In this document: in pieces, positions 742 through 63,900 of the stretch | Layout: each line of letters opens with the position of its first letter | How positions within the stretch are numbered: the first letter of the stretch is position 1 | From: Candidatus Moraniibacteriota bacterium | Lineage (GTDB): Bacteria; Patescibacteriota; Minisyncoccia; Moranbacterales; UBA1568 | Assembly (NCBI GenBank): GCA_016699385.1 | Contig: CP064974.1 | Location: 3,242 to 67,241 of the forward strand | Direction: 5' to 3' | Length of the DNA stretch: 64,000 nt | Program-made: the position numbers and the translations under genes | The notes under the pieces: model-generated | What the model saw: the letters and a program-made list of their open reading frames with translations, nothing else | What the model was told of the DNA's origin: nothing | Database searches by the model: none

Positions 742-1657
742 TTACGCCCCTCTTTTTGAAAGTAGCGGAGAATATATTCGGCTAAAAGTTCCCGTGCAAA
801 TATACGTGATCGTGGTTGAGTAGGCGCCGGCTTGGGTGGTGGCGGCGACGTTTACGATATAGGACACGGTGAAGGTGGTGGAGGCGGTGGCGGCGTTTGC
901 TGTCGCCAGGTTGGTGGTGGTATCAGCGATGAAACGATACTCGTCGGCAGTGTTGTAATCGGAAGCGGGGGCGCCTGTGCCGCCAGAGGGCTCGGCGCCG
1001 GTATTGGGGTTGCGTTGTCTTTGAGGTTGATACCCGAACTGCTCGGTGCCGGTCGAGGAAGTGGTCTTGGTTCCCATGGCGTCAATCGTATTTGCGCCGC
1101 TCGTCAAGGTGGCGCCGTAGTAGGTGATGGTGTAGCCGCTTGTTGCATTGGTGGCGGCGGCAAGGGTATTGGCGGTGCCGTTATTGAAACCGGTGTTGGA
1201 AGAATCGGGATTCAAGACACCACCGGAACAGGTGAGAGACGGTATTTTGCGAGAGCGTGAAGGTGAGATAGGGATCAATGGTGGTTGAAACCACCACCTG
1301 ATCGTCATCGACGATTGCAGTTGCGATTTGTCCCGTGTCGCCGAAAGTACCGGTAATGGCAATGACATAGTTTGCGGCGGTTGTCGGATTGTCGATTTGA
1401 GATCGCCGCCCGGAGGCGTTGGTGCCGATTTCGACGACAACTTTCCATCCGGCGGTGATCGCGGTGCCACCGCTACTCGGATAGGTGAGGGTGAGGACGC
1501 GATTCTCGGTGCCAGAAAAGGCGGCGCCCCAGGTTGCGGCACCGGCCGATCCGGCGAGTGTTGCTTCGTTTTCATAGCCGGTCGAGGCGCCGTAGGAGAG
1601 AATCGACATCGCCAAAATCAAGACCGGTTGCATCAAAATCCGACGGGAAGGTGACAA
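742..1657 (-). CDS. secreted hypothetical protein, apparently frameshifted (two overlapping ORFs 1181..1657 and 742..1575)
   Basis: The N-terminal ORF starts with a signal-peptide-like MQPVLILAMSILSYGAS segment. The 3' part continues in another frame with a T/S/N/G-rich low-complexity sequence ending ...TITYICTGTF. One frameshift near 1200-1260 would join the two ORFs. I recognise no protein family. Confidence 0.4.
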
Positions 1658-1670
1658 TAATAGTATCCCG

Positions 1671-1898
1671 TCACTTCCGCGGCGCCGGTCGGCGATGTGA
1701 ATCCGGATCGGTGATTGGAAAACTCGTCTTTTTGACGCGACTCTGAGTGTCGGAGAGCGCGGTAAGAGAGGCGGCCTTGGCTTGATTTACGAATACGCCA
1801 AGAGAGATAACAAAAACAAGGACGACTGAGAACGCTCCGCCTAGAGCATTTTTCATTTGCGCCCAAACGGGTTTTCGCCTGCGTCTTTTGGAAGGCAT
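1671..1898 (-). CDS. small predicted signal-peptide/membrane protein upstream of the secreted protein
   Basis: 75-aa ORF with MKNALGGAFSVVLVFVISLGVFVNQAKA (hydrophobic core followed by AKA-A). It ends 14 nt before the next minus-strand ORF. It could also be a 5' remnant of that gene. Confidence 0.25.
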   Translation of the reverse strand: MPSKRRRRKPVWAQMKNALGGAFSVVLVFVISLGVFVNQAKAASLTALSDTQSRVKKTSFPITDPDSHRRPAPRK

Positions 1899-2061
1899 AA
1901 TTTTGTTTTCCAGTGAGACTCTTTTTTTGAATTCTCTATCTCAGAATCCCTTCTATGGGAAATAGTTAAAGTATTTTTGTTTTTTACGAAGGAGTCGAGA
2001 GAATTAATGTCAAATACTTAGAGCTCTTCACTTTTCTCATGCTCTCCGCTAGGATGGAAAT

Positions 2062-3697
2062 ATGAAAGAACTCTTGCAATCAGCACTCAAAGACGCATTC
2101 CAATCACTTTTCGATGAAGGAGGGAAGACTCTTTCGTGTGAAGGGGAACCTTCTTTCGATGTGACATTCCCAAAAGATGACTCGCATGGAGACTATACAT
2201 CGAACATTGCTCTTTTCGCTTGCGAGGCATTTGAAGCAATCGCCACTTGATATAGCTCACCGTCTTGAAGAGCAGTTGTCCAAGGATAATCGCTTGAGAC
2301 AATTTACTATTGAAGTTATTTGCTCGGGGTATATCAATTTTTCGGCCACTCCGGAGATGCTTGCGGAATTGTAGCGGAAATATGCGCCAAGAAGAATGAA
2401 TATGGCGCACAAGAGCTCAATGATCATGGCAAGATTCTTCTGGAATTCATCTCTGCCAACCCGACCGGACCGCTCCATATGGGGAATGCTCGCGGAGGAT
2501 TCTTTTGGTGATACGCTCTCGCGAATTCTGAAGAAGTGCGGCTATGACGTTTCAACTGAATATTATGTGAATGATGCCGGGGAGCAGGTTGCGAAGCTTG
2601 GGCATAGTGTCCTTAAAGATACTGAAGCGGTATATGGTGGTGAGTATATCGATGATCTTGGGAAGAGATGGGCGCGACAGTCGGAACTTCGAGTAGACCG
2701 ATCCGCGAGTTGTTGGAGCGTGGGCAGGGCGGATTGTTCTGGAAGAATACATTCAGAAAACCGTTTCGGAGCGAATGGGAATATCGTTTGACGATTTTAT
2801 CTCTGAAAAAAACGATATCGTCGAGGCAGGATATGTCGATCGGGCAATCTCGTTTCTCAAAGAGGAGGGACTGACCCATGAAGAGCAAGGCGCTCTTTGG
2901 CTTCGGACGACGGTATGGTGATGATAAAGACCGAGTACTCATAAAAGCAAATGGAGAAAGGACCTATTTTGCGTCGGACTGTGGGTATCTTCTCCACAAA
3001 AAGGAACGTGGCTTTGACCGAATCAGCGAGGTCTGGGGTGCTGATCACCATGGGTATGTGGCGAGGTTTCACGCGGCGGCGGAGGCACTTGGCTTTGCCG
3101 GGATCGAGTGACGTTTACACTGGTTCAATTGGTACCGCTTGGTAAAGAATGGTCAGAAGTCCGCATGTCCAAGCGCGCTGGGAATATCGTGACGGTAGAT
3201 GAATTGCTCAATCGGATTGATGTTGATGTGGTGCGATTCTTCTTTCTCATGTATTCCCTGATACACATGAATTTCGATATGGGACTTGCCGAAGAGCGAA
3301 GTCAGAAGAACCCGGTCTTCTATGTACAGTATGCTCATGCGCGTATGGCGAGTATTTTCCGGAAAGCCGAAGAAGAACTTGGTATGAATATGCAAGAATT
3401 CTCTGTCAATCAAGAAGAAATACACCTTCAGAATTCGAAAGAGATTCTTTTGGTGCGACACTTGGCGAGATTTTCAGAAGTGCTTTGCTCTGCCGTTGGA
3501 AACGTCTACTGTGCACCAGCTTCCTCAGTATGCGATTCGTCTCGCCGATCTTTTCCACTCGTTTTACAACGAATGTACGGTTCTTGATTCCGGGAATATG
3601 CCCGTGACACGATCACGTCTCGCGCTTGTCGGTGCGACCAAGAATGTGTACTCGCGGAGACGCTTCGATTGATTGGTGTCTCTGTGCCAGAGAGGAT
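2062..3697 (+). pseudogene. argS: arginyl-tRNA synthetase gene broken into at least 6 frames
   Basis: Consecutive ORF pieces carry ArgRS hallmarks: [17 protein letters not shown] (HIGH region), the YVNDAGEQV segment, GADHHGY, the anticodon-binding region RFFFLMY...VQYAHARM, and the C-terminus ...LRLIGVSVPERM* ending at 3697. At least six frame changes are needed to read through. One maps to a T-run (ctcttttcg near 2215). Confidence 0.8.
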
Positions 3698-3781
3698 GTG
3701 AGGCAATTTTCTTGTGGCGCGTTCTTTGACAGTGCTTGGCGCTTTGTTATGCTGACCAAAGTGTCAGTTTTTCTTTTCTTT

Positions 3782-5614
3782 CTATGTCCACCCCGCTTCA
3801 TATTTTGAAAACGCAGGTTTAGGTTTGATCCGTTTCGCTCTCATCAGGAGGCGATTATCGAAGCAGTGCTCGCTGGGAGAGATGCCTTTGTGCTCATGCC
3901 GACGGGCGGTGGGAAGTCGCTTTGCTATCAGATTCCAGCGCTCCTTTTGCCAAATGTCACTGTGGTTATTTCGCCACTCATCGCGCTGATGAAGGATCAG
4001 TGGATGCACTTCCGGGTGGCTGGTGTTGCGGCGGAATATCTCAATTCGTCGCTCTCGCCCGAAGAGCAGGATCGGGTGCTCGCCTCTCTTGTGCGCAGGA
4101 AGACGAAGCTCTTGCATATTGCGCCCGAGCGACTTTTGGCGCGTCATCCCTTGTTCCGTTCTTGCAAGAAGTGGGCGTGTCACTTTTTGCGGTTGATGAG
4201 GCGCACTGTATCTCGGCATGGGGACATGATTTTCGTCCGGAGTATCGCTTCCTTTCCGACCTCAAGAAATTCTTCTCTGCGACGCCGACGGTCGCGCTCA
4301 CGGCAACGGCGGACGATTTGACGAGTCAGGATATTGTCGAACGACTCGCGCTCCACTCACCGCTCTTTTTCAAATCGAGCTTTGACCGTCAAATATCCAC
4401 TATACTATCAACCGAAAGCAAAGATTTTGAGCGATTGATTCGCTATCTTGCAACGCGCCGCAATGATTCCGGTATTGTCTATACGCTGTCACGGAAATCT
4501 GCTGACAGTGTGGCAAGGCGACTTACTGAAGCAGGATTCTCGGCGCTATCCTATCATGCAGGGCTCGATGCGAGTGTACGAGACAAACATCAGGGTCGAT
4601 TTCTCCGCGATGAGACCAAGATTATTGTTGCGACGATTGCTTTTGGTATGGGAATCAACAAGTCCAATGTGCGATTTGTTGTCCATATGGATCTCCCCAA
4701 GAATATCGAGCTACTATCAGGAGACGGGGCGTGCTGGCCGGGATGGTCTTCAGAGTGAAGCGCTCCTCTTCTATTCGCCGGCAGATGTGCAGAAGCTCGC
4801 ACGGTTTGCACTCGTTGATGGGAATGAAGAGCAATCGGTCGTTATGCTCCGCAAGCTCAAACAGCTGGCAGACCTCTGCGAGGCAAATGTGTGCCGACGA
4901 CATCTCATCTTGCGCTATTTCGGTGAAGTTTTTCCAGAATCATGCGATGCCTGTGATGTGTGTCTCTCCGAACGGACGACATTTGATGGCACGCTTATTG
5001 CGCAGAAATTGCTTTCGGCAGTCTTTCGTCTCCATGAGCGAGTTGGTCTTGGCTATACTATAGGACGTGCTTCGCGGATCGAAATCCGAGAAGATCTGCC
5101 CTGAGCATCGTGCCATAAAAACTTTGGCGCGGGCACAGACACTTCTCGGGAAGCGTGGTTTCGCTATGCCAAGGATCTCATCGCATTGGGATTCCTGAAG
5201 CAAGTGGGCGAACCATACCCGACACTTTCACTGACAGAGAAGAGCGCTGCTGTACTTCGTGGTGAGACACGGGTAATGCTGACCGCTTCAGTGGAAGTCA
5301 AAAAGGAAGTAGAGGTAGTCATTCCTGCTCACGAAGCGACACTTCTCGATCAACTCAAAGCGCTTCGTACGGACTATGCGCAGAAAGAAAACGTGCCGCC
5401 CTACATTATCTTCTCCGATGCGACACTTCTCGAGCTTGCCACATTTCTTCCATCGGACATATCCGAGCTTGCGAATCTCTGGCTTCGGAGAAGTGAAGAC
5501 GCGGCGATATGGCAAAGCCTTCCTCAGTGTTGTCGCTACCTATTGTCGAGAACACGGACTGTCATCAAAATGTCGGAGAAAATTTCGGTTCGGTTCTCGC
5601 GAAAGATAAGGTGA
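3782..5614 (+). pseudogene. recQ: RecQ-family ATP-dependent DNA helicase, multiply frameshifted
   Basis: Pieces carry RecQ motifs: AFVLMPTGGGKSLCYQIPAL (Walker A), AVDEAHCISAWGHDFRPEY (motif II), YYQETGRAGRDG (motif VI), a Cys-rich RecQ-Ct zinc region (CDACDVC) and a C-terminal HRDC-like segment (5186..5614). The start MSTPLHILKTQV at 3782 is followed immediately by a frame change. The helicase core is spread over at least four reading-frame segments (3782, 3866, 3922, 4448). Confidence 0.8.
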
Positions 5615-5822
5615 CGCAGAAGTCTGTTTGCCGAGAGACAGGGGTCTCAGCGCGATAGAGACGCACTTTTGGAAAGTTGAGATTTCTCAACTTCGCTCGG
5701 AAATGGCTATGGCTTCCGCTCTATCGTTTCAAGCAAAGTATTTTCTCTCGTATTCTGCGGAGGGCGAGTTGTTTCAGAAGATGCGCGTGTGATGATACAA
5801 TGGTGATATCAAAACCCCCTCT

Positions 5823-26561: not shown

Positions 26562-27017
26562 ATGAAGCGGTATGTATGGGTAGTGCCATTTCCACAGAGA
26601 TCTGACGACTGCGGTAAGCATAGTGATGAATACTGGAAGTTGTGGACGTATATCCAGGAGATTTATGGCGGAGGGGCTTGTGCTGCTGCGTATGCTCCAG
26701 AGAAAGGCTCTCGATGGACTTTAGTGGTCGAATATCTCAACAAGATATTTTTGGAGCAAAGGAATGATCCTTTCGCATTGAATTTCTTGGCTCGTTGTTA
26801 TGCTGAAGGAGAGGGTGTTGAGCGTGACATGAAAAAAGCGCGGCAGGGCTTTTTGGATGCTGGAAACCTTTTGCTCCCAGTGGCATGGTTTAATCTCGGA
26901 ATACTCCATTCTTTAGAATGCAACCCGAATTTTATTGAAGTGGTTAATTGTTTTACCATGGGGAAGCGATTGGGATGTTCTTTTTGTGCAAATAAGATAT
27001 CTGCTCTCGGAGCATAG
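26562..27017 (+). CDS. Sel1/TPR-like repeat protein
   Basis: 151-aa ORF with ALNFLARCYAEGEGVERDMKKARQGF, which resembles a Sel1-type repeat. Confidence 0.35.
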   Translation: MKRYVWVVPFPQRSDDCGKHSDEYWKLWTYIQEIYGGGACAAAYAPEKGSRWTLVVEYLNKIFLEQRNDPFALNFLARCYAEGEGVERDMKKARQGFLDAGNLLLPVAWFNLGILHSLECNPNFIEVVNCFTMGKRLGCSFCANKISALGA

Positions 27018-27113
27018 TTTGAGGGGCTCGTGAAGTAATACGAGCCCTGTTTTCATATTTGTCAACATTGAAAACTTTGCTCTGACGCGATAGGATGGGG
27101 GTATTCTTGTGAA

Positions 27114-30077
27114 ATGTCTATGAATGCAAAATACGATCCGAAAGAAGTTGAGTTTAAGTGGCAAAAACTTTGGGAAGAGGAAGAATTTTTCCATGCGAAG
27201 ACAGGTGCGGAGAAGCAGAAATTCTATGCACTCGTTGAGTTTCCGTATCCGTCGGGCGAGGGGTTGCACGTGGGGCATGTCCGACCGTATGTGGCACTCG
27301 ATGCGGTAGCACGGAAGCGTCGGATGGAGGGGTATGAAGTGATTTATCCATTTGGGTGGGATGCCTTTGGGCTTCCGACGGAGAATTACGCCGTAAAACA
27401 CAGTATTCATCCGGAGGTGGTGACGAAAAGGAATACGGATAATTTTCGCAGACAGGTTAAAAATATCGGGATATCTTTCGACTGGTTTCGGGAAATCAAT
27501 ACGACGGATCCGGCATACTACAAATGGACGCAGTGGATTTTCCTTCAGCTTTTTAAACATGACTTGGCGTACAAAACAAAGATGGATATCAACTGGTGTC
27601 CGTCGTGTCGGATTGGACTTGCCAATGAAGAGGCGATTGGCGGCGTGTGCGAGCGGTGTGGTGGATCGACGGAGAGACGCGAAAAGGAACAATGGATGCT
27701 GGCGATTACCAAGTATGCCGACCGACTCGATCGCGATCTCGATACGGTGGATTATCTTGACCGCGTGAAAACACAACAGCGCAATTGGATTGGACGGAGC
27801 GAGGGAGTGATTGTGAAATTTTACATCAGGGATATAGAAAAGGGTGTTCCCTTCTCTCACTCTGAAGTACCGGAGAGCTCCCCTCAGGCAGGGGAGCAGG
27901 AGAAATGTATCGAAGTTTTTACTACGAGAGTGGATACGATTTTCGGTTGCACGTATGTGGTTGTGGCGCCGGAGCACCCGCTTCTTAAAGAGAAAGAAAT
28001 CGGAATCGAAAATTTGGCAGAGGTTCGGGAATATGCGGACACCGTGAAGAAGAAAACCGAACAAGATCGCCTGGATGCAACGAAAGAAAAGACTGGCGTG
28101 AAGCTTGAGGGAGTAGAAGCAGTGAACCCCTTTACCGGTGAAGGCGTGCCGGTCTTTGTCGCGGATTATGTCCTCGGGAATTATGGCACGGGTGCGGTGA
28201 TGGCAGTGCCAGCGCATGATGAGCGGGACTTCGAATTTGCAAAGAAGCATGGATTACCGATTCGACAGTCAGTTGCACCGTTCTTTTCGAATACTGAAGG
28301 AAAGGATGCAATACAATCGGATAAACCGACCGTGAGGAGAAAAACAGCATTTTCTTTCGTGAGACACTGGAAGGAGGATAAGTACCTTTGTCTTAATTGG
28401 GAGAAATTCGGTTGGCATTCGGGGGTTATCGGTGGCATTGAAGAAGGGGAGTCTCCTGTTGAGGCGGCGATACGAGAAATTATTGAGGAGACAGGATATA
28501 AGCATCCGAGATTTGAGAAATTTGTCGGAGGGGAAGTGCACACGAATTTCTACGCGGCACATAAGGATGTGAATAGATATGCAGAAGGCGTTGGCATGTT
28601 GTTTATGCTTGAAAATGATGCATGGGAAAAGCCAAAAGACGAAGAGACGATACATCATGAAGCGATATGGATTGACCGAAAAGAAATGGATTCATTTTTG
28701 AATCTTCGAAACTTTCAATATATGTGGGAGATTTTGAAGACAGGGAAAGATTGTTTTATTGATGAAGGCATCCTTATCAATTCTGGTGAATTTTCTGGGC
28801 TGAAATCCGAAGAGGCGCGGGAGAAAATGACGGCGTGGCTCACGAAGGAAAAACTCGGAAAGAAACAGGTGAATTACAAATTGCGCGATTGGGTGTTCTC
28901 GCGGCAACGATATTGGGGGGAGCCGATTCCGCTGGTGTTTTGTCCTGCCTGTGCCAAAGCTACAGCGGGCAAGAAAAACTCCGGATGGATACCACTTCCC
29001 GAAGAAGAGTTGCCTCTAAAATTGCCACAAGTAAAGTCATATGTGCCGACGGAAACAGGAGAATCGCCTCTGGCGGCAATGGAAGACTGGGTGAAGACGA
29101 CATGTCCCATCTGCGGCGGTCCCGCGCGGCGTGAGACGGACACGATGCCGAATTGGGCGGGATCGAGTTGGTACTATTTGCGCTATACAGATCCGGGGAA
29201 TGTGGAGGCGCTTGCAGGCAAAGAGGCACTCGCGTATTGGACGCCAGTTGATTGGTACAATGGCGGGATGGAACATACGACATTGCATTTGCTCTACTCA
29301 CGATTTTGGCACAAATTTCTCTACGATATTGGTGTTGTGCCGACATCGGAGCCGTATATGAAGCGCACGTCACATGGACTTATTCTTGCCGAGGGCGGAG
29401 TCAAGATGAGTAAGTCCAAGGGGAATGTGGTAAATCCGGACGATATTGTCCGGCGCTTTGGTGCAGACACTCTGCGCGCCTATGAAATGTTTATGGGACC
29501 GTTTGATCAGGCGGTTGCGTGGAGTGAAGAGAGTATCGCCGGGTCGCGGCGGTTCTTGGAGAAGGTGTGGAAGATGCAATTCAACGTTAATCATAAAAAG
29601 GCACCTGTTGAAGATAAAGATCTCAACGCTTTGCTTCATAAGACGATTAAGAAAGTATCGGAAGATATCGAAGAAATGCGGTTCAATACGGCGGTGTCGG
29701 CGCTGATGATTCTGGCGAATGAGATGGAAAAACAAGAAAGCGTTTCTCTCGATGTCTATTCTACATTTTTGCTTCTCCTCTCGCCTTTTGCGCCGCATAT
29801 TGCGGAAGAACTCTGGCACTTGCTGGGAAACAAGAAATCGCTTATGTTGGGATGTTGGCCTAAAGCCGACCCTCGCTTTCTTGTTGCTGAGGCGGTTGAG
29901 GTGGTGGTGCAGGTAAACGGCAAGCTTCGCGCGAGGCTTCGGATTTCAGCAGGTACTTCGCGAGAAGATGTTGAGCGTTTGGCTCGTGAGGAAAGGACGG
30001 TCCAGCAGTACCTCGAAAACGCAACTGTTCGAAACGTAGTTTTCGTTCCGAATCGGCTGGTGAACTTTGTGATTTGA
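27114..30077 (+). CDS. leuS: leucyl-tRNA synthetase with an inserted Nudix hydrolase domain
   Basis: 987 aa, with the HIGH region (PYPSGEGLHVGHVRPY), a CP1 editing domain and KMSKSKGN. Between the editing domain and the leucyl-specific region (about nt 28270..28760) lies an insert of about 165 aa. The insert contains a perfect Nudix box, GGIEEGESPVEAAIREIIEETGY (G-x5-E-x7-REUxEExGU). Confidence 0.9.
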   Translation: MSMNAKYDPKEVEFKWQKLWEEEEFFHAKTGAEKQKFYALVEFPYPSGEGLHVGHVRPYVALDAVARKRRMEGYEVIYPFGWDAFGLPTENYAVKHSIHPEVVTKRNTDNFRRQVKNIGISFDWFREINTTDPAYYKWTQWIFLQLFKHDLAYKTKMDINWCPSCRIGLANEEAIGGVCERCGGSTERREKEQWMLAITKYADRLDRDLDTVDYLDRVKTQQRNWIGRSEGVIVKFYIRDIEKGVPFSHSEVPESSPQAGEQEKCIEVFTTRVDTIFGCTYVVVAPEHPLLKEKEIGIENLAEVREYADTVKKKTEQDRLDATKEKTGVKLEGVEAVNPFTGEGVPVFVADYVLGNYGTGAVMAVPAHDERDFEFAKKHGLPIRQSVAPFFSNTEGKDAIQSDKPTVRRKTAFSFVRHWKEDKYLCLNWEKFGWHSGVIGGIEEGESPVEAAIREIIEETGYKHPRFEKFVGGEVHTNFYAAHKDVNRYAEGVGMLFMLENDAWEKPKDEETIHHEAIWIDRKEMDSFLNLRNFQYMWEILKTGKDCFIDEGILINSGEFSGLKSEEAREKMTAWLTKEKLGKKQVNYKLRDWVFSRQRYWGEPIPLVFCPACAKATAGKKNSGWIPLPEEELPLKLPQVKSYVPTETGESPLAAMEDWVKTTCPICGGPARRETDTMPNWAGSSWYYLRYTDPGNVEALAGKEALAYWTPVDWYNGGMEHTTLHLLYSRFWHKFLYDIGVVPTSEPYMKRTSHGLILAEGGVKMSKSKGNVVNPDDIVRRFGADTLRAYEMFMGPFDQAVAWSEESIAGSRRFLEKVWKMQFNVNHKKAPVEDKDLNALLHKTIKKVSEDIEEMRFNTAVSALMILANEMEKQESVSLDVYSTFLLLLSPFAPHIAEELWHLLGNKKSLMLGCWPKADPRFLVAEAVEVVVQVNGKLRARLRISAGTSREDVERLAREERTVQQYLENATVRNVVFVPNRLVNFVI

Positions 30078-54900: not shown

Positions 54901-57900
54901 CTTTACTCCGAACAGGGCGCGACCGACTACACCACGACTTTCCAGCCCGGCACCCAAACACAAAACATCACCTATACACTTCCAAACGATGATGGGACAA
55001 GTGGGCAGGTACTTCTCACCGATGGAAGTGGCACACTTTCTTGGTCGAGCGTCTCCGGTGCTGGCGGAGTGAGTGGAACTGGAACAAGCGGCTACGCAAC
55101 ATATTGGGATAGCACGAACTCTATTGCTGCCGAACAATATCTCTCCCTTACCCGAGGAGGCACCGGTACCACACTCTCCAATCCCGGAGCCGATCGCGTT
55201 CTCTTCTGGGATAACTCTGGTGGTGCACTGACCTGGCTCGCTCCTTCTTCCAACCTCTCCATCACTGCCACCACCCCTCGACCTCGCCTCCTCCGTCAAC
55301 ATCAACACCCTCCAACTCGGCGCAAACGGCACCGACGGTTCTTTCATTCTTTACTCCGAACAGGGCGCGACCGACTACACCACGACTTTCCAGCCCGGCA
55401 CCCAAACACAAGACATCACCTATACACTTCCGAATGATGATGGGACAAGTGGGCAGGTCTTAATTACCGATGGATCAGGAGTACTTTCTTGGACTTCAGC
55501 CGGATCGGGAGGTATCGGAGATATCACCGCTATCGGAGATGTGACGAGCGGAGATGCCTTCACCTCAAGCGGCATCCAAGGAACCAGCTTGTATTTCTAC
55601 GATGTTGATGGGAGGGGTCAACTGACCAGCGCTGATCTTTCCGCTGTCCGCACCTGGACTTTGCCAAATGAAACCGGCACCATCTGTACCACCGGCAGTG
55701 TCTGTTCTGGCTACCAAGCCTCTCTCGGCTACACGGCTGCCAACGCCGCTCTCTCCAACCTCGCCTCCGTCGCCATCAATACGAGCCTCGTCTCCGACAC
55801 CGACAATACCGATGACCTTGGTTCCGCTGCGATTGCTTGGAAGGATGTATATACCCGCACTATCAAATTTGATGGAAGCACTTCTGGTACCATCACCCTC
55901 AATGCAACCGCTATCGCCGGTACCAATACCATTACGCTCCCAGCGAGTACGGGAACCGTCGCCCTCACCAGTGACCTTCATAACGCTGTCACCCTTTCCG
56001 GATCCTATGACTACATCACCCTTTCCGGTCAAGACATTGTTCGCGGACAAGTTGACCTCACAACCGATGTGACGGGGACACTGCCAGTAGGGAATGGAGG
56101 AACGGGCGCGACCACTCTCAACAATCTCATCACCCTCGGGACGCACACCACCGGAAACTACGTCGCCTCCGCAACCGCAAGCGGTGGTCTCGCTCTGACC
56201 GGCACCGAAGGCGGGAGTCTCGGCATTCTCCTCCAACCTTCAACGGATGCGCTTTCAAGTACCACGAGCTCCGGCTCTGGTATGGAACTCCTCGCAACCG
56301 GACTCACCCTCCTTCAAGGATGTACCAGTGGGGAAGTACTTGCTTGGAACGAAGCAACCGATGTCTGGGAATGTGCGAGCGTCAGTGGTATTGGTGGTGC
56401 CAACGCCGCTCTCTCCAACCTCGCCTCCGTCGCCATCAATACGAGCCTCGTCTCCGACACCGACAATACCGATGACCTTGGTTCCGCTGCGATTGCTTGG
56501 AAGGATGTATATACCCGCACTATCAAATTTGATGGAAGCACTTCTGGTACCATCACCCTCAATGCAACCGCTATCGCCGGTACCAATACCATTACGCTCC
56601 CAGCGAGTACGGGAACCGTCGCGCTCACCAGTGACCTTCATAACGCTGTCACCCTTTCCGGATCCTATGACTACATCACCCTTTCCGGTCAAGACATTGT
56701 TCGCGGACAAGTTGACCTCACAACCGATGTGACGGGGACACTGCCAGTAGGGAATGGAGGAACGGGCGCGACCACTCTCAACAATCTCATCACCCTCGGG
56801 ACGCACACCACCGGAAACTACGTCGCCTCCGCAACCGCAAGCGGTGGTCTCGCTCTGACCGGCACCGAAGGCGGGAGTCTCGGCATTCTCCTCCAACCTT
56901 CAACGGATGCGCTTTCAAGTACCACGAGCTCCGGCTCTGGTATGGAACTCCTCGCAACCGGACTCACCCTCCTTCAAGGATGTACCAGTGGGGAAGTACT
57001 TGCTTGGAACGAAGCAACCGATGTCTGGGAATGTGCGAGCGTCAGTGGTATTGGTGGTGCCAACGCCGCTCTCTCCAACCTCGCCTCCGTCGCCATCAAT
57101 ACGAGCCTCGTCTCCGACACCGACAATACCGATGACCTTGGTTCCGCTGCGATTGCTTGGAAGGATGTATATACCCGCACTATCAAATTTGATGGAAGCA
57201 CTTCTGGTACCATCACCCTCAATGCAACCGCTATCGCCGGTACCAATACCATTACGCTCCCAGCGAGTACGGGAACCGTCGCCCTCACCAGTGACCTTCA
57301 TAACGCTGTCACCCTTTCCGGATCCTATGACTACATCACCCTTTCCGGTCAAGACATTGTTCGCGGACAAGTTGACCTCACAACCGATGTGACGGGGACA
57401 CTGCCAGTAGGGAATGGAGGAACGGGCGCGACCACTCTCAACAATCTCATCACCCTCGGGACGCACACCACCGGAAACTACGTCGCCTCCGCAACCGCAA
57501 GCGGTGGTCTCGCTCTGACCGGCACCGAAGGCGGGAGTCTCGGCATTCTTCTCCAGCCTTCAACGGATGCGCTTTCAAGTACCACGAGCTCCGGCTCTGG
57601 TATGGAACTCCTCGCAACCGGACTCACCCTCCTTCAAGGATGTACCAGTGGGGAAGTACTTGCTTGGAACGAAGCAACCGATGTCTGGGAATGTGCGAGC
57701 GTCAGTGGTATTGGTGGTGCCAACGCCGCTCTCTCCAACCTCGCCTCCGTCGCCATCAATACGAGCCTCGTCTCCGACACCGACAATACCGATGACCTCG
57801 GTTCCGCTGCGATTGCTTGGAAGGATGTATATACCCGCACTATCAAATTTGATGGAAGCACTTCTGGTACCATCACCCTCAATGCAACCGCTATCGCCGG

Positions 57901-60900
57901 TACCAATACCATTACGCTCCCAGCGAGTACGGGAACCGTCGCCCTCACCAGTGACCTTCATAACGCTGTCACCCTTTCCGGATCCTATGACTACATCACC
58001 CTTTCCGGTCAAGACATTGTTCGCGGACAAGTTGACCTCACAACCGATGTGACGGGGACACTGCCAGTAGGGAATGGAGGAACGGGCGCGACCACTCTCA
58101 ACAATCTCATCACCCTCGGGACGCACACCACCGGAAACTACGTCGCCTCCGCAACCGCAAGCGGTGGTCTCGCTCTGACCGGCACCGAAGGCGGGAGTCT
58201 CGGCATTCTTCTCCAGCCTTCAACGGATGCGCTTTCAAGTACCACGAGCTCCGGCTCTGGTATGGAACTCCTCGCAACCGGACTCACCCTCCTTCAAGGA
58301 TGTACCAGTGGGGAAGTACTTGCTTGGAACGAAGCAACCGATGTCTGGGAATGTGCGAGCGTCAGTGGTATTGGTGGTGCCAACGCCGCTCTCTCCAACC
58401 TCGCCTCCGTCGCCATCAATACGAGCCTCGTCTCCGACACCGACAATACCGATGACCTCGGTTCCGCTGCGATTGCTTGGAAGGATGTATATACCCGCAC
58501 TATCAAATTTGATGGAAGCACTTCTGGTACCATCACCCTCAATGCAACCGCTATCGCCGGTACCAATACCATTACGCTCCCAGCGAGTACGGGAACCGTC
58601 GCCCTCACCAGTGACCTTCATAACGCTGTCACCCTTTCCGGATCCTATGACTACATCACCCTTTCCGGTCAAGACATTGTTCGCGGACAAGTTGACCTCA
58701 CAACCGATGTGACGGGGACACTGCCAGTAGGGAATGGAGGAACGGGCGCGACCACTCTCAACAATCTCATCACCCTCGGGACGCACACCACCGGAAACTA
58801 CGTCGCCTCCGCAACCGCAAGCGGTGGTCTCGCTCTGACCGGCACCGAAGGCGGGAGTCTCGGCATTCTTCTCCAGCCTTCAACGGATGCGCTTTCAAGT
58901 ACCACGAGCTCCGGCTCTGGTATGGAACTCCTCGCAACCGGACTCACCCTCCTTCAAGGATGTACCAGTGGGGAAGTACTTGCTTGGAACGAAGCAACCG
59001 ATGTCTGGGAATGTGCGAGCGTCAGTGGTATTGGTGGTGCCAACGCCGCTCTCTCCAACCTCGCCTCCGTCGCCATCAATACGAGCCTCGTCTCCGACAC
59101 CGACAATACCGATGACCTCGGTTCCGCTGCGATTGCTTGGAAGGATGTATATACCCGCACTATCAAATTTGATGGAAGCACTTCTGGTACCATCACCCTC
59201 AATGCAACCGCTATCGCCGGTACCAATACCATTACGCTCCCAGCGAGTACGGGAACCGTCGCCCTCACCAGTGACCTTCATAACGCTGTCACCCTTTCCG
59301 GATCCTATGACTACATCACCCTTTCCGGTCAAGACATTGTTCGCGGACAAGTTGACCTCACAACCGATGTGACGGGGACACTGCCAGTAGGGAATGGAGG
59401 AACGGGCGCGACCACTCTCAACAATCTCATCACCCTCGGGACGCACACCACCGGAAACTACGTCGCCTCCGCAACCGCAAGCGGTGGTCTCGCTCTGACC
59501 GGCACCGAAGGCGGGAGTCTCGGCATTCTTCTCCAGCCTTCAACGGATGCGCTTTCAAGTACCACGAGCTCCGGCTCTGGTATGGAACTCCTCGCAACCG
59601 GACTCACCCTCCTTCAAGGATGTACCAGTGGGGAAGTACTTGCTTGGAACGAAGCAACCGATGTCTGGGAATGTGCGAGCGTCAGTGGTATTGGTGGTGC
59701 CAACGCCGCTCTCTCCAACCTCGCCTCCGTCGCCATCAATACGAGCCTCGTCTCCGACACCGACAATACCGATGACCTCGGTTCCGCTGCGATTGCTTGG
59801 AAGGATGTATATACCCGCACTATCAAATTTGATGGAAGCACTTCTGGTACCATCACCCTCAATGCAACCGCTATCGCCGGTACCAATACCATTACGCTCC
59901 CAGCGAGTACGGGAACCGTCGCCCTCACCAGTGACCTTCATAACGCTGTCACCCTTTCCGGATCCTATGACTACATCACCCTTTCCGGTCAAGACATTGT
60001 TCGCGGACAAGTTGACCTCACAACCGATGTGACGGGGACACTGCCAGTAGGGAATGGAGGAACGGGCGCGACCACTCTCAACAATCTCATCACCCTCGGG
60101 ACGCACACCACCGGAAACTACGTCGCCTCCGCAACCGCAAGCGGTGGTCTCGCTCTGACCGGCACCGAAGGCGGGAGTCTCGGCATTCTTCTCCAGCCTT
60201 CAACGGATGCGCTTTCAAGTACCACGAGCTCCGGCTCTGGTATGGAACTCCTCGCAACCGGACTCACCCTCCTTCAAGGATGTACCAGTGGGGAAGTACT
60301 TGCTTGGAACGAAGCAACCGATGTCTGGGAATGTGCGAGCGTCAGTGGTATTGGTGGTGCCAACGCCGCTCTCTCCAACCTCGCCTCCGTCGCCATCAAT
60401 ACGAGCCTCGTCTCCGACACCGACAATACCGATGACCTCGGTTCCGCTGCGATTGCTTGGAAGGATGTATATACCCGCACTATCAAATTTGATGGAAGCA
60501 CTTCTGGTACCATCACCCTCAATGCAACCGCTATCGCCGGTACCAATACCATTACGCTCCCAGCGAGTACGGGAACCGTCGCCCTCACCAGTGACCTTCA
60601 TAACGCTGTCACCCTTTCCGGATCCTATGACTACATCACCCTTTCCGGTCAAGACATTGTTCGCGGACAAGTTGACCTCACAACCGATGTGACGGGGACA
60701 CTGCCAGTAGGGAATGGAGGAACGGGCGCGACCACTCTCAACAATCTCATCACCCTCGGGACGCACACCACCGGAAACTACGTCGCCTCCGCAACCGCAA
60801 GCGGTGGTCTCGCTCTGACCGGCACCGAAGGCGGGAGTCTCGGCATTCTTCTCCAGCCTTCAACGGATGCGCTTTCAAGTACCACGAGCTCCGGCTCTGG

Positions 60901-63900
60901 TATGGAACTCCTCGCAACCGGACTCACCCTCCTTCAAGGATGTACCAGTGGGGAAGTACTTGCTTGGAACGAAGCAACCGATGTCTGGGAATGTGCGAGC
61001 GTCAGTGGTATTGGTGGTGCCAACGCCGCTCTCTCCAACCTCGCCTCCGTCGCCATCAATACGAGCCTCGTCTCCGACACCGACAATACCGATGACCTCG
61101 GTTCCGCTGCGATTGCTTGGAAGGATGTATATACCCGCACTATCAAATTTGATGGAAGCACTTCTGGTACCATCACCCTCAATGCAACCGCTATCGCCGG
61201 TACCAATACCATTACGCTCCCAGCGAGTACGGGAACCGTCGCCCTCACCAGTGACCTTCATAACGCTGTCACCCTTTCCGGATCCTATGACTACATCACC
61301 CTTTCCGGTCAAGACATTGTTCGCGGACAAGTTGACCTCACAACCGATGTGACGGGGACACTGCCAGTAGGGAATGGAGGAACGGGGGTGGCGACTTTCG
61401 GCGGGACCAATACGCTCCTCTATACTACTTCTGCCAATACACTCGCTTCTCTGGCAACGGCGAATAGCTCCATACTTGTCACCAATGGTTCAGGTGTCCC
61501 TTCACTCGCAACAGATATCCCGACCGCCGTCACTATCGGTGGCGCCTATGTCTATCGAGTGGGTGGGACAGATGTATCCGTCGCCGATGGGGGAACAGGT
61601 TTGAGTTCATATACCGCTGGCGACATTCTCTATGCCTCTGGAACAACGACACTTGCGGGACTGAGTGATGTCGCTACTGGAAATGTTCTCCTTTCTGGCG
61701 GGATAGGCTCCTCACCGAGTTGGGGCAAGGTGGCACTTGGGACACATACGACCGGAGACTATATCGCCTCAGCAACCGCGAGTGGCGGACTCGTAATGAC
61801 GGGAACGGCTGGCGGGAGTCTCGGCATTCTTCTCCAGCCTTCAACGGATGCGCTTTCAAGTACCACGAGCTCCGGCTCTGGTATGGAACTCCTCGCAACC
61901 GGACTCACCCTCCTTCAAGGATGTACCAGTGGGGAAGTACTTGCTTGGAACGAAGCAACCGATGTCTGGGAATGTGCGAGCGTCAGTGGTATTGGTGGTG
62001 CCAACGCCGCTCTCTCCAACCTCGCCTCCGTCGCCATCAATACGAGCCTCGTCTCCGACACCGACAATACCGATGACCTCGGTTCCGCTGCGATTGCTTG
62101 GAAGGATGTATATACCCGCACTATCAAATTTGATGGAAGCACTTCTGGTACCATCACCCTCAATGCAACCGCTATCGCCGGTACCAATACCATTACGCTC
62201 CCAGCGAGTACGGGAACCGTTGCCCTTATTGATGGAGGACAGACGTTTACCTCTGCTACTTGGAATGGCACTGCAATTGGCTCCATCTATGGAGGCACTG
62301 GACTCAATACCTCTGCCTCTACTGGTGTTCCTACTATTAGTAGTGGTACCTGGAGTGTGGCGAGTTCGCTTGGAGTGGCACTTGGAGGAACGGGCACGAC
62401 CACTCAATTCACCCAAGGCTCTATCGTTTTTGCCGGTGCAAGCGGTGTGTATACACAAGACAATGCCAATTTCTTCTGGGATAATACGAATAAGAGATTG
62501 GGGATTGGGGACGCTACTCCCGACAGTGCTCTTGATATTTTGGCAGCCGATGCATCAAATACCTATCTCACTATCGGCAACACCAATGCCGGAAGTTACA
62601 ATGCAGGTATTCGCTTTGAGCTCACCGAGAACAGCGCTCTCTATTCTCTCGGTGTTGATGATACGGATTCTGATAAATTCAAAATATATGCTGGTTCAGA
62701 CTTCAGTGGCACAAGTCAATTTTCCATAGATACGACTGGTGTTACCACCATCAGTCAGCTTCAGGTTGGCGCACAGAAATTTGAAACCGATGGCGGAGTG
62801 CTCTCCTGGGTGGATATGGATGTGACGAGTAGCGCGACGGACAACACGGTGGAGAGTTATAGCGCGCAGGTTGATGGGCAGAATCTCCTGACGATCTATG
62901 CCCTCTCTGATGGGGCGGGGAGTATTGACAACAAGAAGGTACAAATTGGTTTGGGAACCGATACGACACTTCCAGTATTGTTTGGTCTTGATGTAAGGAA
63001 CACCACCAGTGATCCGAGCGAAGGCTTCGAAGGCGCCATGTACTACAATACCTTCGACAACAAATTCCGCTGTTACCAAAACACTGGTTGGACTGACTGT
63101 ATTGGTGCAGGCTCTTCCTACACCGCCGGAAACGGTCTCACTCTTTCTTCTACAACATTCAAGCTCGGTGGCACTCTTTCTGAAAACACGACCATTGCTC
63201 AGACGACCTATACTTACAATCAGACATTCACCGGGACGACTACAACCGGTCTCACTTATACCGCCAATTCACTTACTACAGGCACAGCACTCAATGTTTC
63301 TTCTACTTCAACGGTTGGAGATGGCTCCAAGCTCTTGAATCTCAGCCGTTCGGGTGCTAATAGCACGAGTGGCAAAACGAACTATGGACTCTATTCTGCT
63401 ATTACGAATACAGGGACAACATCGACAAATATCGCCGGATATTTCAGTGCAACTGGAGCGACAACAAACTTTGGTTTGCAAGTAGCTGCGCTTACGGGGG
63501 CAACATCGACGGGCGTTGATATTGGCAATCTTTCTGGATCTACGGCGAACAAGGGAATAAATATCGGAACGATTTCTGGTACCGGTACTGGCGCTGGAGT
63601 GACCGTCGGAAATATCTCAAGTACTGGTGCAAATAATTACGGCATTAACCTCGGAACATTGACCGGAGGAACGGCATCAAATTCGCAGATTACCGCTGGT
63701 GTCGTAACGGCAGTAGCGAGCGCAACGAACTATGGCATCAATCTCGGCGGTATAACGGGTACAGCCGCATCCTCTACGAACTACGGTGTATTTGTCGGGA
63801 CGATGAGTGCAACAGGGACAGCGACATACGGCGCAAAGATTACGGGTCCGACCGGAGCGGCGACATCCAATTACGGTGTCAATATAACGGATGTCTCAGG

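Follow-up and report, generated by a model that had tools for sequence, protein, structure and literature searches.

Why would an aminoacyl-tRNA synthetase (aaRS) carry a Nudix hydrolase within its own editing domain? The question is raised by the leuS gene of a Candidatus Moraniibacteriota bacterium, located in a stretch of 64,000 nucleotides that was analysed as a whole (hereafter the window; assembly GCA_016699385.1, contig CP064974.1, positions 3,242 to 67,241 of the forward strand). The gene encodes a bacterial-type leucyl-tRNA synthetase (LeuRS) in which 159 aa with a confidently predicted Nudix fold and an intact Nudix box lie inside the CP1 editing domain. The best explanation overall, to which we give an even chance, is that the insert is a tethered (di)nucleoside-polyphosphate hydrolase in a housekeeping LeuRS. 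The features of the gene are the following.

27114-30077, plus strand: leuS, bacterial-type LeuRS hosting the insert (987 aa, a single unbroken open reading frame, ORF)
27267-27278, plus strand: HVGH, the HIGH signature of the aminoacylation site (aa 52-55)
27780-28274, plus strand: CP1 editing domain, first part (aa 223-387; PF13603 profile positions 1-140)
27834-27905, plus strand: short disordered loop near the start of CP1 (aa 241-264, within the variable region aa 220-265)
27921-27938, plus strand: T-rich editing motif TTRVDT (aa 270-275)
28185-28229, plus strand: editing motif GTG...AHDERD (AHDERD at aa 367-372)
28275-28751, plus strand: Nudix domain nested in CP1 (aa 388-546, A388 to D546, 159 aa)
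28431-28499, plus strand: Nudix box GGIEEGESPVEAAIREIIEETGY, the metal-binding/catalytic motif (aa 440-462)
28560-28577, plus strand: family-specific motif HKDVNR in the turn of a long beta-hairpin (aa 483-488)
28752-28877, plus strand: CP1 editing domain, last part (about aa 547-588; PF13603 profile positions 153-184 at aa 545-576)
29403-29417, plus strand: KMSKS loop (aa 764-768)
29613-29960, plus strand: anticodon-binding domain PF08264 (aa 834-949)

A Nudix domain nested in CP1

The boundaries of the insert were set by comparison with insert-less orthologues (...LPIKISIQGNNFNDEGCFTEDGVLVNSG...). The Pfam profile NUDIX (PF00293) matches aa 433-527 with 35.3 bits against a gathering cutoff of 21.1 (E-value = 1.4e-8). 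When the protein is aligned with the LeuRS of T. thermophilus (HMMER E-value = 3.5e-211), residues 6-387 of the query correspond to residues 3-362 and residues 548-774 to residues 377-594; therefore, about 160 aa stand in place of a 14-aa loop (T. thermophilus 363-376). The editing-domain profile PF13603 (E-value = 1.3e-55) is also split, its positions 1-140 falling on aa 223-388 and its positions 153-184 (of 185) continuing at aa 545-576 past the insert, which places the Nudix domain inside CP1 and gives a nesting on three levels, Nudix within CP1 within the Rossmann fold. In the full-length AlphaFold2 model the insert is flanked by strands 387-392 and 552-554 and its beta-strands are continuous with CP1, consistent with an insertion at the tip of the CP1 beta-hairpin. 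A first-pass annotation, made from the letters of the window, had put a Nudix domain at 28270-28760 (aa 386-549), between the editing domain and the leucine-specific region of an otherwise canonical LeuRS. The domain is genuine and in frame (Pfam cutoff passed, catalytic box intact, fold confidently predicted), the box quoted there is present at aa 440-462 as a strict consensus match, and alignment to a bacterial LeuRS confirms an insertion; its site, however, had to be corrected, since PF13603 resumes after the insert and the loop of the CP1 hairpin is the place of entry.

Apart from the insert, the LeuRS is indeed canonical. TIGR00396 (leuS_bact) matches with 969.1 bits against a curated equivalog cutoff of 548.4, in two stretches split by the insert, and HVGH, the editing motifs and KMSKS are all present. 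The LeuRS body of the model superposes on solved bacterial LeuRSs with TM-scores (normalized to the target) of 0.82-0.85. Two start codons are possible: the ORF begins at 27114 (MSMNAKYD...), but the ATG at 27120 may be the true start, since the identical NCBI protein (P0006) has 985 aa.

Concerning the fold, AlphaFold2 returned for the insert alone a predicted local distance difference test (pLDDT) of 94.8 and a predicted template modelling score (pTM) of 0.88, and for the full-length LeuRS a pLDDT of 88.7 and a pTM of 0.79, with the Nudix segment at 90-96 and disorder (pLDDT < 50) limited to aa 246-261. Foldseek gave 428 matches to the Nudix model at E-value ≤ 1e-3, with a probability of 1.0 for many solved Nudix enzymes. 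A known LeuRS insertion of non-Nudix type, which the first-pass annotation had named as a possible refutation, is ruled out by the Pfam match, the model and these structural matches. The closest solved structures are 2AZW, an uncharacterized Nudix protein of E. faecalis, and the Aquifex Ap4A (diadenosine tetraphosphate) hydrolase 3I7U (target-normalized TM-score 0.81), followed by Chlamydia CT771 with bound Ap4A products, AvrM14, diphosphoinositol polyphosphate phosphohydrolases (DIPPs), ADP-ribose pyrophosphatases, RppH and Ndx1, all structural neighbors sharing only 15-22% identity with the insert. A profile-to-PDB search was led by AvrM14, 2AZW and the lupin Ap4A hydrolase (E-value about 1e-9). 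None of 34 family members reached the curated cutoff of any NCBIfam Nudix model. The most consistent of these models were those of RppH/NudH (NF001934-NF001938), with weak matches in 33 of the 34 members (best E-value 1.5e-8); membership was rejected, the window copy scoring 16-22 bits against cutoffs of 116-259. Also rejected were the MutT 8-oxo-dGTPase (NF008044/TIGR00586; 16.9 bits against 148, with 14 of the 34 members matching at all), the NudB dihydroneopterin-triphosphate diphosphatase (NF006961; 25.4 bits against 103) and NudE, NudI, YtkD and ADPRase, each below its curated cutoff. The insert resembles the RppH/Ap4A-hydrolase/decapping group and is a member of no curated subfamily.

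The Nudix box fits the consensus GX5EX7REUXEEXGU, with a Tyr in the last U position as in most members of this family; it is unique across the six frames of the window and occurred 0 times in 200 shuffles of it. When 61 full-length homologues, 55-78% identical to the query, were aligned, all three motif sets proved to be invariant; the invariant positions include those of aminoacylation (H52, G54, H55, K764, S766, K767), of editing (T271, R272, D274, T275, G358, G360, H368, D369, R371, D372) and of the Nudix domain (R409, G440, G441, E446, R454, E455, E458, E459, T460, G461, K484, N487, W519). The last set includes K484 and N487 of the HKDVNR motif, whose R488 is conserved in at least 90% and which aligns with SKDTQR of AvrM14; from this pattern, HKDVNR is a candidate for binding the substrate. 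The insert has a mean identity to the query of 46%, against 63% for the rest of LeuRS, so it evolves faster and yet keeps these residues; the closest relatives for which DNA was available are about 67% identical within it, a distance at which synonymous sites would be saturated. Across an independent sample of GTDB genomes the strict box is found in 69 of 74 embedded copies and in 6 of 6 free ones. Two of the five embedded exceptions have in-frame UGA at Gly positions, as expected of code-25 lineages. At these loci (L012:4001-4498 and L046:4001-4453) TGA stands at the Nudix-box glycines, the opening GG of L012 being TGA-TGA, which fits genetic code 25 of Gracilibacteria-like lineages.

Distribution, loss and replacement of the insert

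Among the 120 best LeuRS relatives, PF00293 is annotated (precomputed) in 112, the strict Nudix box occurs at the same site in about 104, and in about 113 the region corresponding to aa 385-550 keeps a constant 161-168 aa. The identical protein P0006 is encoded on a 1.11-Mb contig that belongs to a metagenome-assembled genome (MAG) of Candidatus Moraniibacteriota. A scan of GTDB species representatives with a 9-sequence alignment as query gave at least 186 loci with this Nudix; in the best 80 of them, which were examined, it is flanked by LeuRS on both sides in 69, truncated by contig ends in 5 and free-standing in 6. Thus, LeuRS-Nudix is present in at least 74 GTDB species of candidate phyla radiation (CPR) bacteria and some DPANN archaea; the taxa, with MAG labels as deposited, include Moran-, Pacei-, Sacchari-, Gracili-, Taylor-, Kaiser-, Magasanik-, Berkel-, Peri-, Buchanan- and Adlerbacteria. 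The first-pass annotation had called the architecture unusual, which holds relative to characterized aaRSs and fails within Patescibacteria, where it is the usual form of LeuRS; the search for such fusions in relatives that it had suggested uncovered the same architecture in more than 100 independent assemblies.

Bacterial-type LeuRSs with the nested Nudix were also seen in MAGs labelled Woesearchaeota (L069, L080, L024 and L003), with AlaRS as a conserved neighbor at these loci and, in L003, a protein with HD and Nudix domains upstream. In L069 the gene (2336-5659) lies beside that of the archaeal tRNA-splicing endonuclease EndA (1768-2292), which makes the DPANN assignment of this locus plausible. 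These occurrences suggest a transfer of LeuRS-Nudix from CPR to DPANN. With regard to database names, the Nudix-bearing P0006, P0018 and P0063 are each called 'class I tRNA ligase family protein' at NCBI, and the insert-less P0034 'leucine--tRNA ligase'; the insert appears to cost Nudix-bearing LeuRSs their specific name, leaving only a generic one.

The gene order around the window leuS is ATP synthase, DUF4349, leuS, phosphoribosyltransferase (PRTase) and RNase_T, and it matches insert-less leuS loci of relatives. Specifically, the insert-less P0025 (L082) shows the full order (ATP synthase alpha-gamma-beta-epsilon, DUF4349, leuS, phosphoribosyltransferase, RNase_T exonuclease), while the insert-less P0034 (L081) shares the synteny of the window upstream of leuS and through leuS itself. 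Because of this common neighborhood both are taken as orthologous to the window leuS, and the insert is therefore a clean presence/absence difference between them. No free Nudix gene was found within 10 kb of the leuS of either P0034 or P0025. In a quick neighbor-joining tree of 627 core columns, insert-less LeuRSs fall at three separate places inside the Nudix-bearing clade near the query, so that by this tree the domain seems to have been lost at least three times. Additionally, P0024 and P0030 carry at exactly the Nudix site a 168-aa nucleotidyltransferase (PF10706/PF14907). Given the insert-less orthologues and this replacement, LeuRS does not need the Nudix domain, and the CP1 hairpin is a hotspot of gain, loss and replacement.

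Other parts of LeuRS host guests as well. P0084 has a Ham1/ITPase between the catalytic core and the anticodon-binding domain; relatives have, in the loop at aa 220-265, inserts of 150-230 aa that are serine hydrolases or second, MutT-like Nudix domains, and in the region of aa 620-700 an ASCH domain or an alpha/beta-hydrolase; P0043, with 1722 aa, contains three Nudix domains, a hydrolase and a HAD domain. Domain-accumulating LeuRSs were recorded in P0043, P0084, P0009, P0027, P0040, P0024/P0030 and P0126/P0127, with at least four insertion sites.

Beyond LeuRS, 1.84 billion representatives were searched exhaustively by profile; 177 proteins matched at E-value ≤ 1e-30, and the best 148 were classified. 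LeuRSs and their fragments account for about 107 of these and free proteins of 160-200 aa for about 25, and the remainder are proteins made of half of CP1 and the Nudix domain, tandem Nudix-Nudix proteins and ProRSs (two); no further kind of host was identified among these 148. Two or three Nudix copies are found in 11 of them, the extra ones near residue 213-240 or about residue 668. In the ProRS P0246 the domain stands between the anticodon-binding domain, which follows the class II core, and the ProRS C-terminal domain. ProRS-Nudix accounts for 5 of the 120 best ProRS matches (P0246 and P0274-P0277; about 641-674 aa), a small clade nested among Nanoarchaeota/Woesearchaeota sequences.

One family of stand-alone proteins, about 280 aa in length, combines the C-terminal half of CP1 with the Nudix domain, which again lies at the same site; its T-rich motif is absent and its AHDxxD decayed, and the Nudix box is intact. 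Its members (L038:3710-4573, L042:1574-2407, L064:3695-4555; P0005, P0190, P0202, P0227, P0236, P0240, P0259) come from MAGs labelled Clostridia or Bacteroidaceae. In L038 and L042 the gene immediately upstream encodes a CYTH triphosphatase, and a third free-Nudix locus has such a gene about 2 kb away, hence three of the six free-standing loci. Finally, the free Nudix gene of L027 (3938-4480) lies directly downstream of a peptidyl-tRNA hydrolase gene (3397-3978) and overlaps its end, the two apparently forming one operon, with a HisRS gene nearby (1416-2708, minus strand).

What the nested domain may hydrolyse

On our favoured reading, the window leuS would be the housekeeping LeuRS of the organism and would have three active sites, the third being a self-contained Nudix pyrophosphohydrolase of 159 aa at the tip of the CP1 beta-hairpin. 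As a Mg2+-dependent hydrolase, it would act on diffusible compounds of the nucleoside-polyphosphate-X type and not on the bound intermediates of LeuRS itself. Its likeliest substrates would be those of RppH/Ap4A-hydrolase-like enzymes, i.e., dinucleoside polyphosphates (Ap4A to ATP and AMP) or related nucleotides, and tethering would provide co-expression with, and proximity to, an enzyme producing adenylate side-products. The parts of this reading differ in strength. The Nudix domain is probably catalytically active. That its substrate is a (di)nucleoside polyphosphate or an NTP-type compound we consider an evenly balanced proposition, and that it is specifically an Ap4A-type by-product of the synthetase a more doubtful one. 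The Ap4A idea draws on the nearest structural and sequence neighbors, the restriction of hosts to aaRSs, the peptidyl-tRNA hydrolase and HisRS context of one free copy and the known chemistry, since aaRSs make Ap4A and Nudix enzymes degrade it (PMC10148737). Equally tentative is a coupling of the domain to aaRS chemistry, as an in-cis third active site that destroys Ap4A/Ap4N or acts on a nucleotide or an RNA end that the synthetase presents to it.

Several observations weigh against this reading. LeuRS is classed as a low Ap4A producer (PMC10148737), and about 5-10% of copies retain the domain with a degenerate box (Q for E, M or A for R, or a box shorter by one residue). Identity to any characterized Nudix enzyme is at most 22%, and the domain scores below every curated cutoff; at such a distance, substrates cannot be reliably deduced within the Nudix superfamily. 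From its repeated loss and replacement, the Nudix function is either dispensable or supplied otherwise, and the CYTH neighbors of free-standing loci point to general nucleotide/polyphosphate metabolism. The unrelated modules in the LeuRSs of relatives weaken the claim of a functional link between Nudix and leucylation, as LeuRS may simply be a permissive host.

The main rival builds on several of these facts. According to it, the domain would be a general pyrophosphatase that sanitizes or salvages the nucleotide pool (oxidized or non-canonical NTPs, NDP-sugars), with no mechanistic link to leucylation, fused only because CP1 loops tolerate insertions and because an essential host guarantees expression in a minimal genome. 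We regard it as a serious possibility, clearly short of an even chance. It would account for the Ham1/ITPase, second MutT-like Nudix, serine hydrolase, HAD, ASCH and nucleotidyltransferase modules that relatives' LeuRSs host at several sites, for the at least three apparent losses and one replacement of the insert, for the CYTH gene adjacent or within about 2 kb in three of six free-standing loci, and for the stand-alone half-CP1 proteins that keep the box without a synthetase body. Opportunistic fusion would, however, predict diverse hosts, whereas the only hosts identified among the best 148 proteins are LeuRS and ProRS, which belong to two unrelated aaRS classes, with at least three sites in LeuRS; moreover, the closest relatives of the domain are of RppH/Ap4A type and not of MutT type.

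A role in quality control of LeuRS or tRNA is improbable. Here the domain would be an RppH-like 5'-pyrophosphohydrolase or decapping enzyme acting on tRNA(Leu) or other RNAs bound to the synthetase, or a hydrolase of released non-cognate aminoacyl-adenylates. Its placement in the domain that handles the acceptor end of tRNA speaks for such a role, together with the consistent weak RppH matches, the decapping effector AvrM14 as best profile match in the PDB, the presence of the same Nudix family in ProRS and the apparent operon with peptidyl-tRNA hydrolase. Yet close orthologues with unchanged editing sites do without the domain, and free-standing and half-CP1 forms exist without a synthetase. 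Aminoacyl-adenylates are acyl-phosphate anhydrides and not NDP-X compounds, their known hydrolases are HIT-family enzymes and not Nudix ones, and processing by RNase P leaves bacterial tRNAs with a 5' monophosphate. A part in LeuRS editing or in aminoacyl-adenylate hydrolysis is disfavoured, because of the at least three losses in close syntenic orthologues, the replacement by a nucleotidyltransferase and the survival of free-standing forms.

Somewhat less probable still is a non-catalytic module, i.e., a regulatory domain binding a nucleotide or another ligand, or a structural or tRNA-contact domain, in which the box would be kept for binding. Lineages with E446Q and R454M/A, whose boxes are expected to be inactive (P0090, P0098, P0104, P0111 and L018), retain the domain, the full-length pTM of 0.79 suggests a fairly defined position on CP1, and the stand-alone forms that retain half of CP1 suggest structural integration; but more than 90% of copies keep all catalytic residues of the box despite the faster evolution of the insert, and the free homologues of 160 aa keep it too.

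Finally, an artefact or selfish element (a separate Nudix gene joined by misassembly, a frameshift or an intein-like insertion) is so improbable as to be negligible, as the lower third-position GC of the insert (0.424 at 28275-28751 against 0.539 in the rest of the gene) and the gain, loss and replacement at its site are set against a single open frame, the identical protein on the 1.11-Mb contig, strands continuous with CP1 in the model, the same architecture in more than 100 independent assemblies (NCBI, JGI, ENA, Logan), on account of which the misassembly raised by the first-pass annotation fails, junctions (RQSV|APFF and TGKD|CFID) that show neither Hint motifs nor a C-terminal His-Asn, and a LeuRS in which no Hint, intein, LAGLIDADG or homing-endonuclease Pfam match was found.

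If the nested hydrolase were coupled to aaRS chemistry, it would represent a built-in, synthetase-linked control of alarmones or nucleotide quality for the ultra-small CPR/DPANN symbionts, and its independent recruitment into the class I LeuRS (at least three sites, up to three copies) and the class II ProRS would reflect selection for proximity to an adenylation site rather than chance fusion. A link such as Ap4A clearance would make LeuRS-Nudix the first aaRS equipped to degrade the alarmone that it makes as a by-product, offering a direct handle on the long debate over Ap4A as signal or damage metabolite. If, on the other hand, the hydrolase is only a hitch-hiker, it shows minimal genomes consolidating housekeeping enzymes into essential genes.

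The rest of the window, and known systems compared

Elsewhere in the window, a tandem array at 56247-61352 has a period of exactly 660 bp and comprises at least eight near-identical units, each with a P/S-rich ORF of 161 aa on the plus strand (99% identical between units) and, on the minus strand, an ORF of 183 aa. Tandem Repeats Finder, whose longest period is 500, does not detect this array. An ORF of 445 aa on the minus strand (26913-28250), antisense to the 5' half of leuS, is probably spurious. Rfam gave no match in the 64-kb window.

Bacterial aaRSs are usually viewed as architecturally conservative, and here a radiation of small genomes, together with some DPANN archaea, uses LeuRS as a scaffold. 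A full-text search, from which most subscription journals were excluded, found no description of a LeuRS-Nudix or aaRS-Nudix architecture, and none of a LeuRS-Nudix is given in PMC7824862, PMC12077802 or PMC9775027. In a 2026 survey of domain insertions the LeuRS editing domain was always the guest, with zero cases as host (PMC13114784). The raw fact is visible in databases, since the sequences are public and carry automatic Pfam hits; its breadth, its conservation and its second host, ProRS, appear to be unreported.

Compared with canonical bacterial LeuRSs (T. thermophilus 1H3N/2BTE, E. coli 4AQ7), the window LeuRS has the same domain order and motifs, including the C-terminal domain, and differs in bearing the 159-aa Nudix, and with it a third catalytic motif, in place of the 14-aa CP1 loop. 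The fold and box of the insert are those of RppH/NudH, of the Ap4A/ApnA Nudix enzymes (aq_158 3I7U, CT771 4MPO, T. thermophilus Ndx1 1VC8) and of AvrM14 (8DP8), with which it also has the KDxxR hairpin motif in common, while it is only distantly identical to them and is embedded, not free. A class Ia aaRS with an extra enzyme is known in IleRS + GNAT (NCBIfam NF040702, a weak match here), although host, guest and position differ. The nearest conceptual precedent is NadM-Nudix (NMN adenylyltransferase/ADP-ribose pyrophosphatase; NCBIfam NF003786), in which an adenylyl-transferring enzyme of the HIGH superfamily is joined to a Nudix domain that degrades a nucleotide product related to the enzyme's own chemistry (PMC7824862). 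NadM-Nudix is an end-to-end fusion with another Nudix subfamily and an established NAD/ADP-ribose link, whereas in LeuRS-Nudix the hydrolase is nested within its host and the corresponding link is one that we infer.

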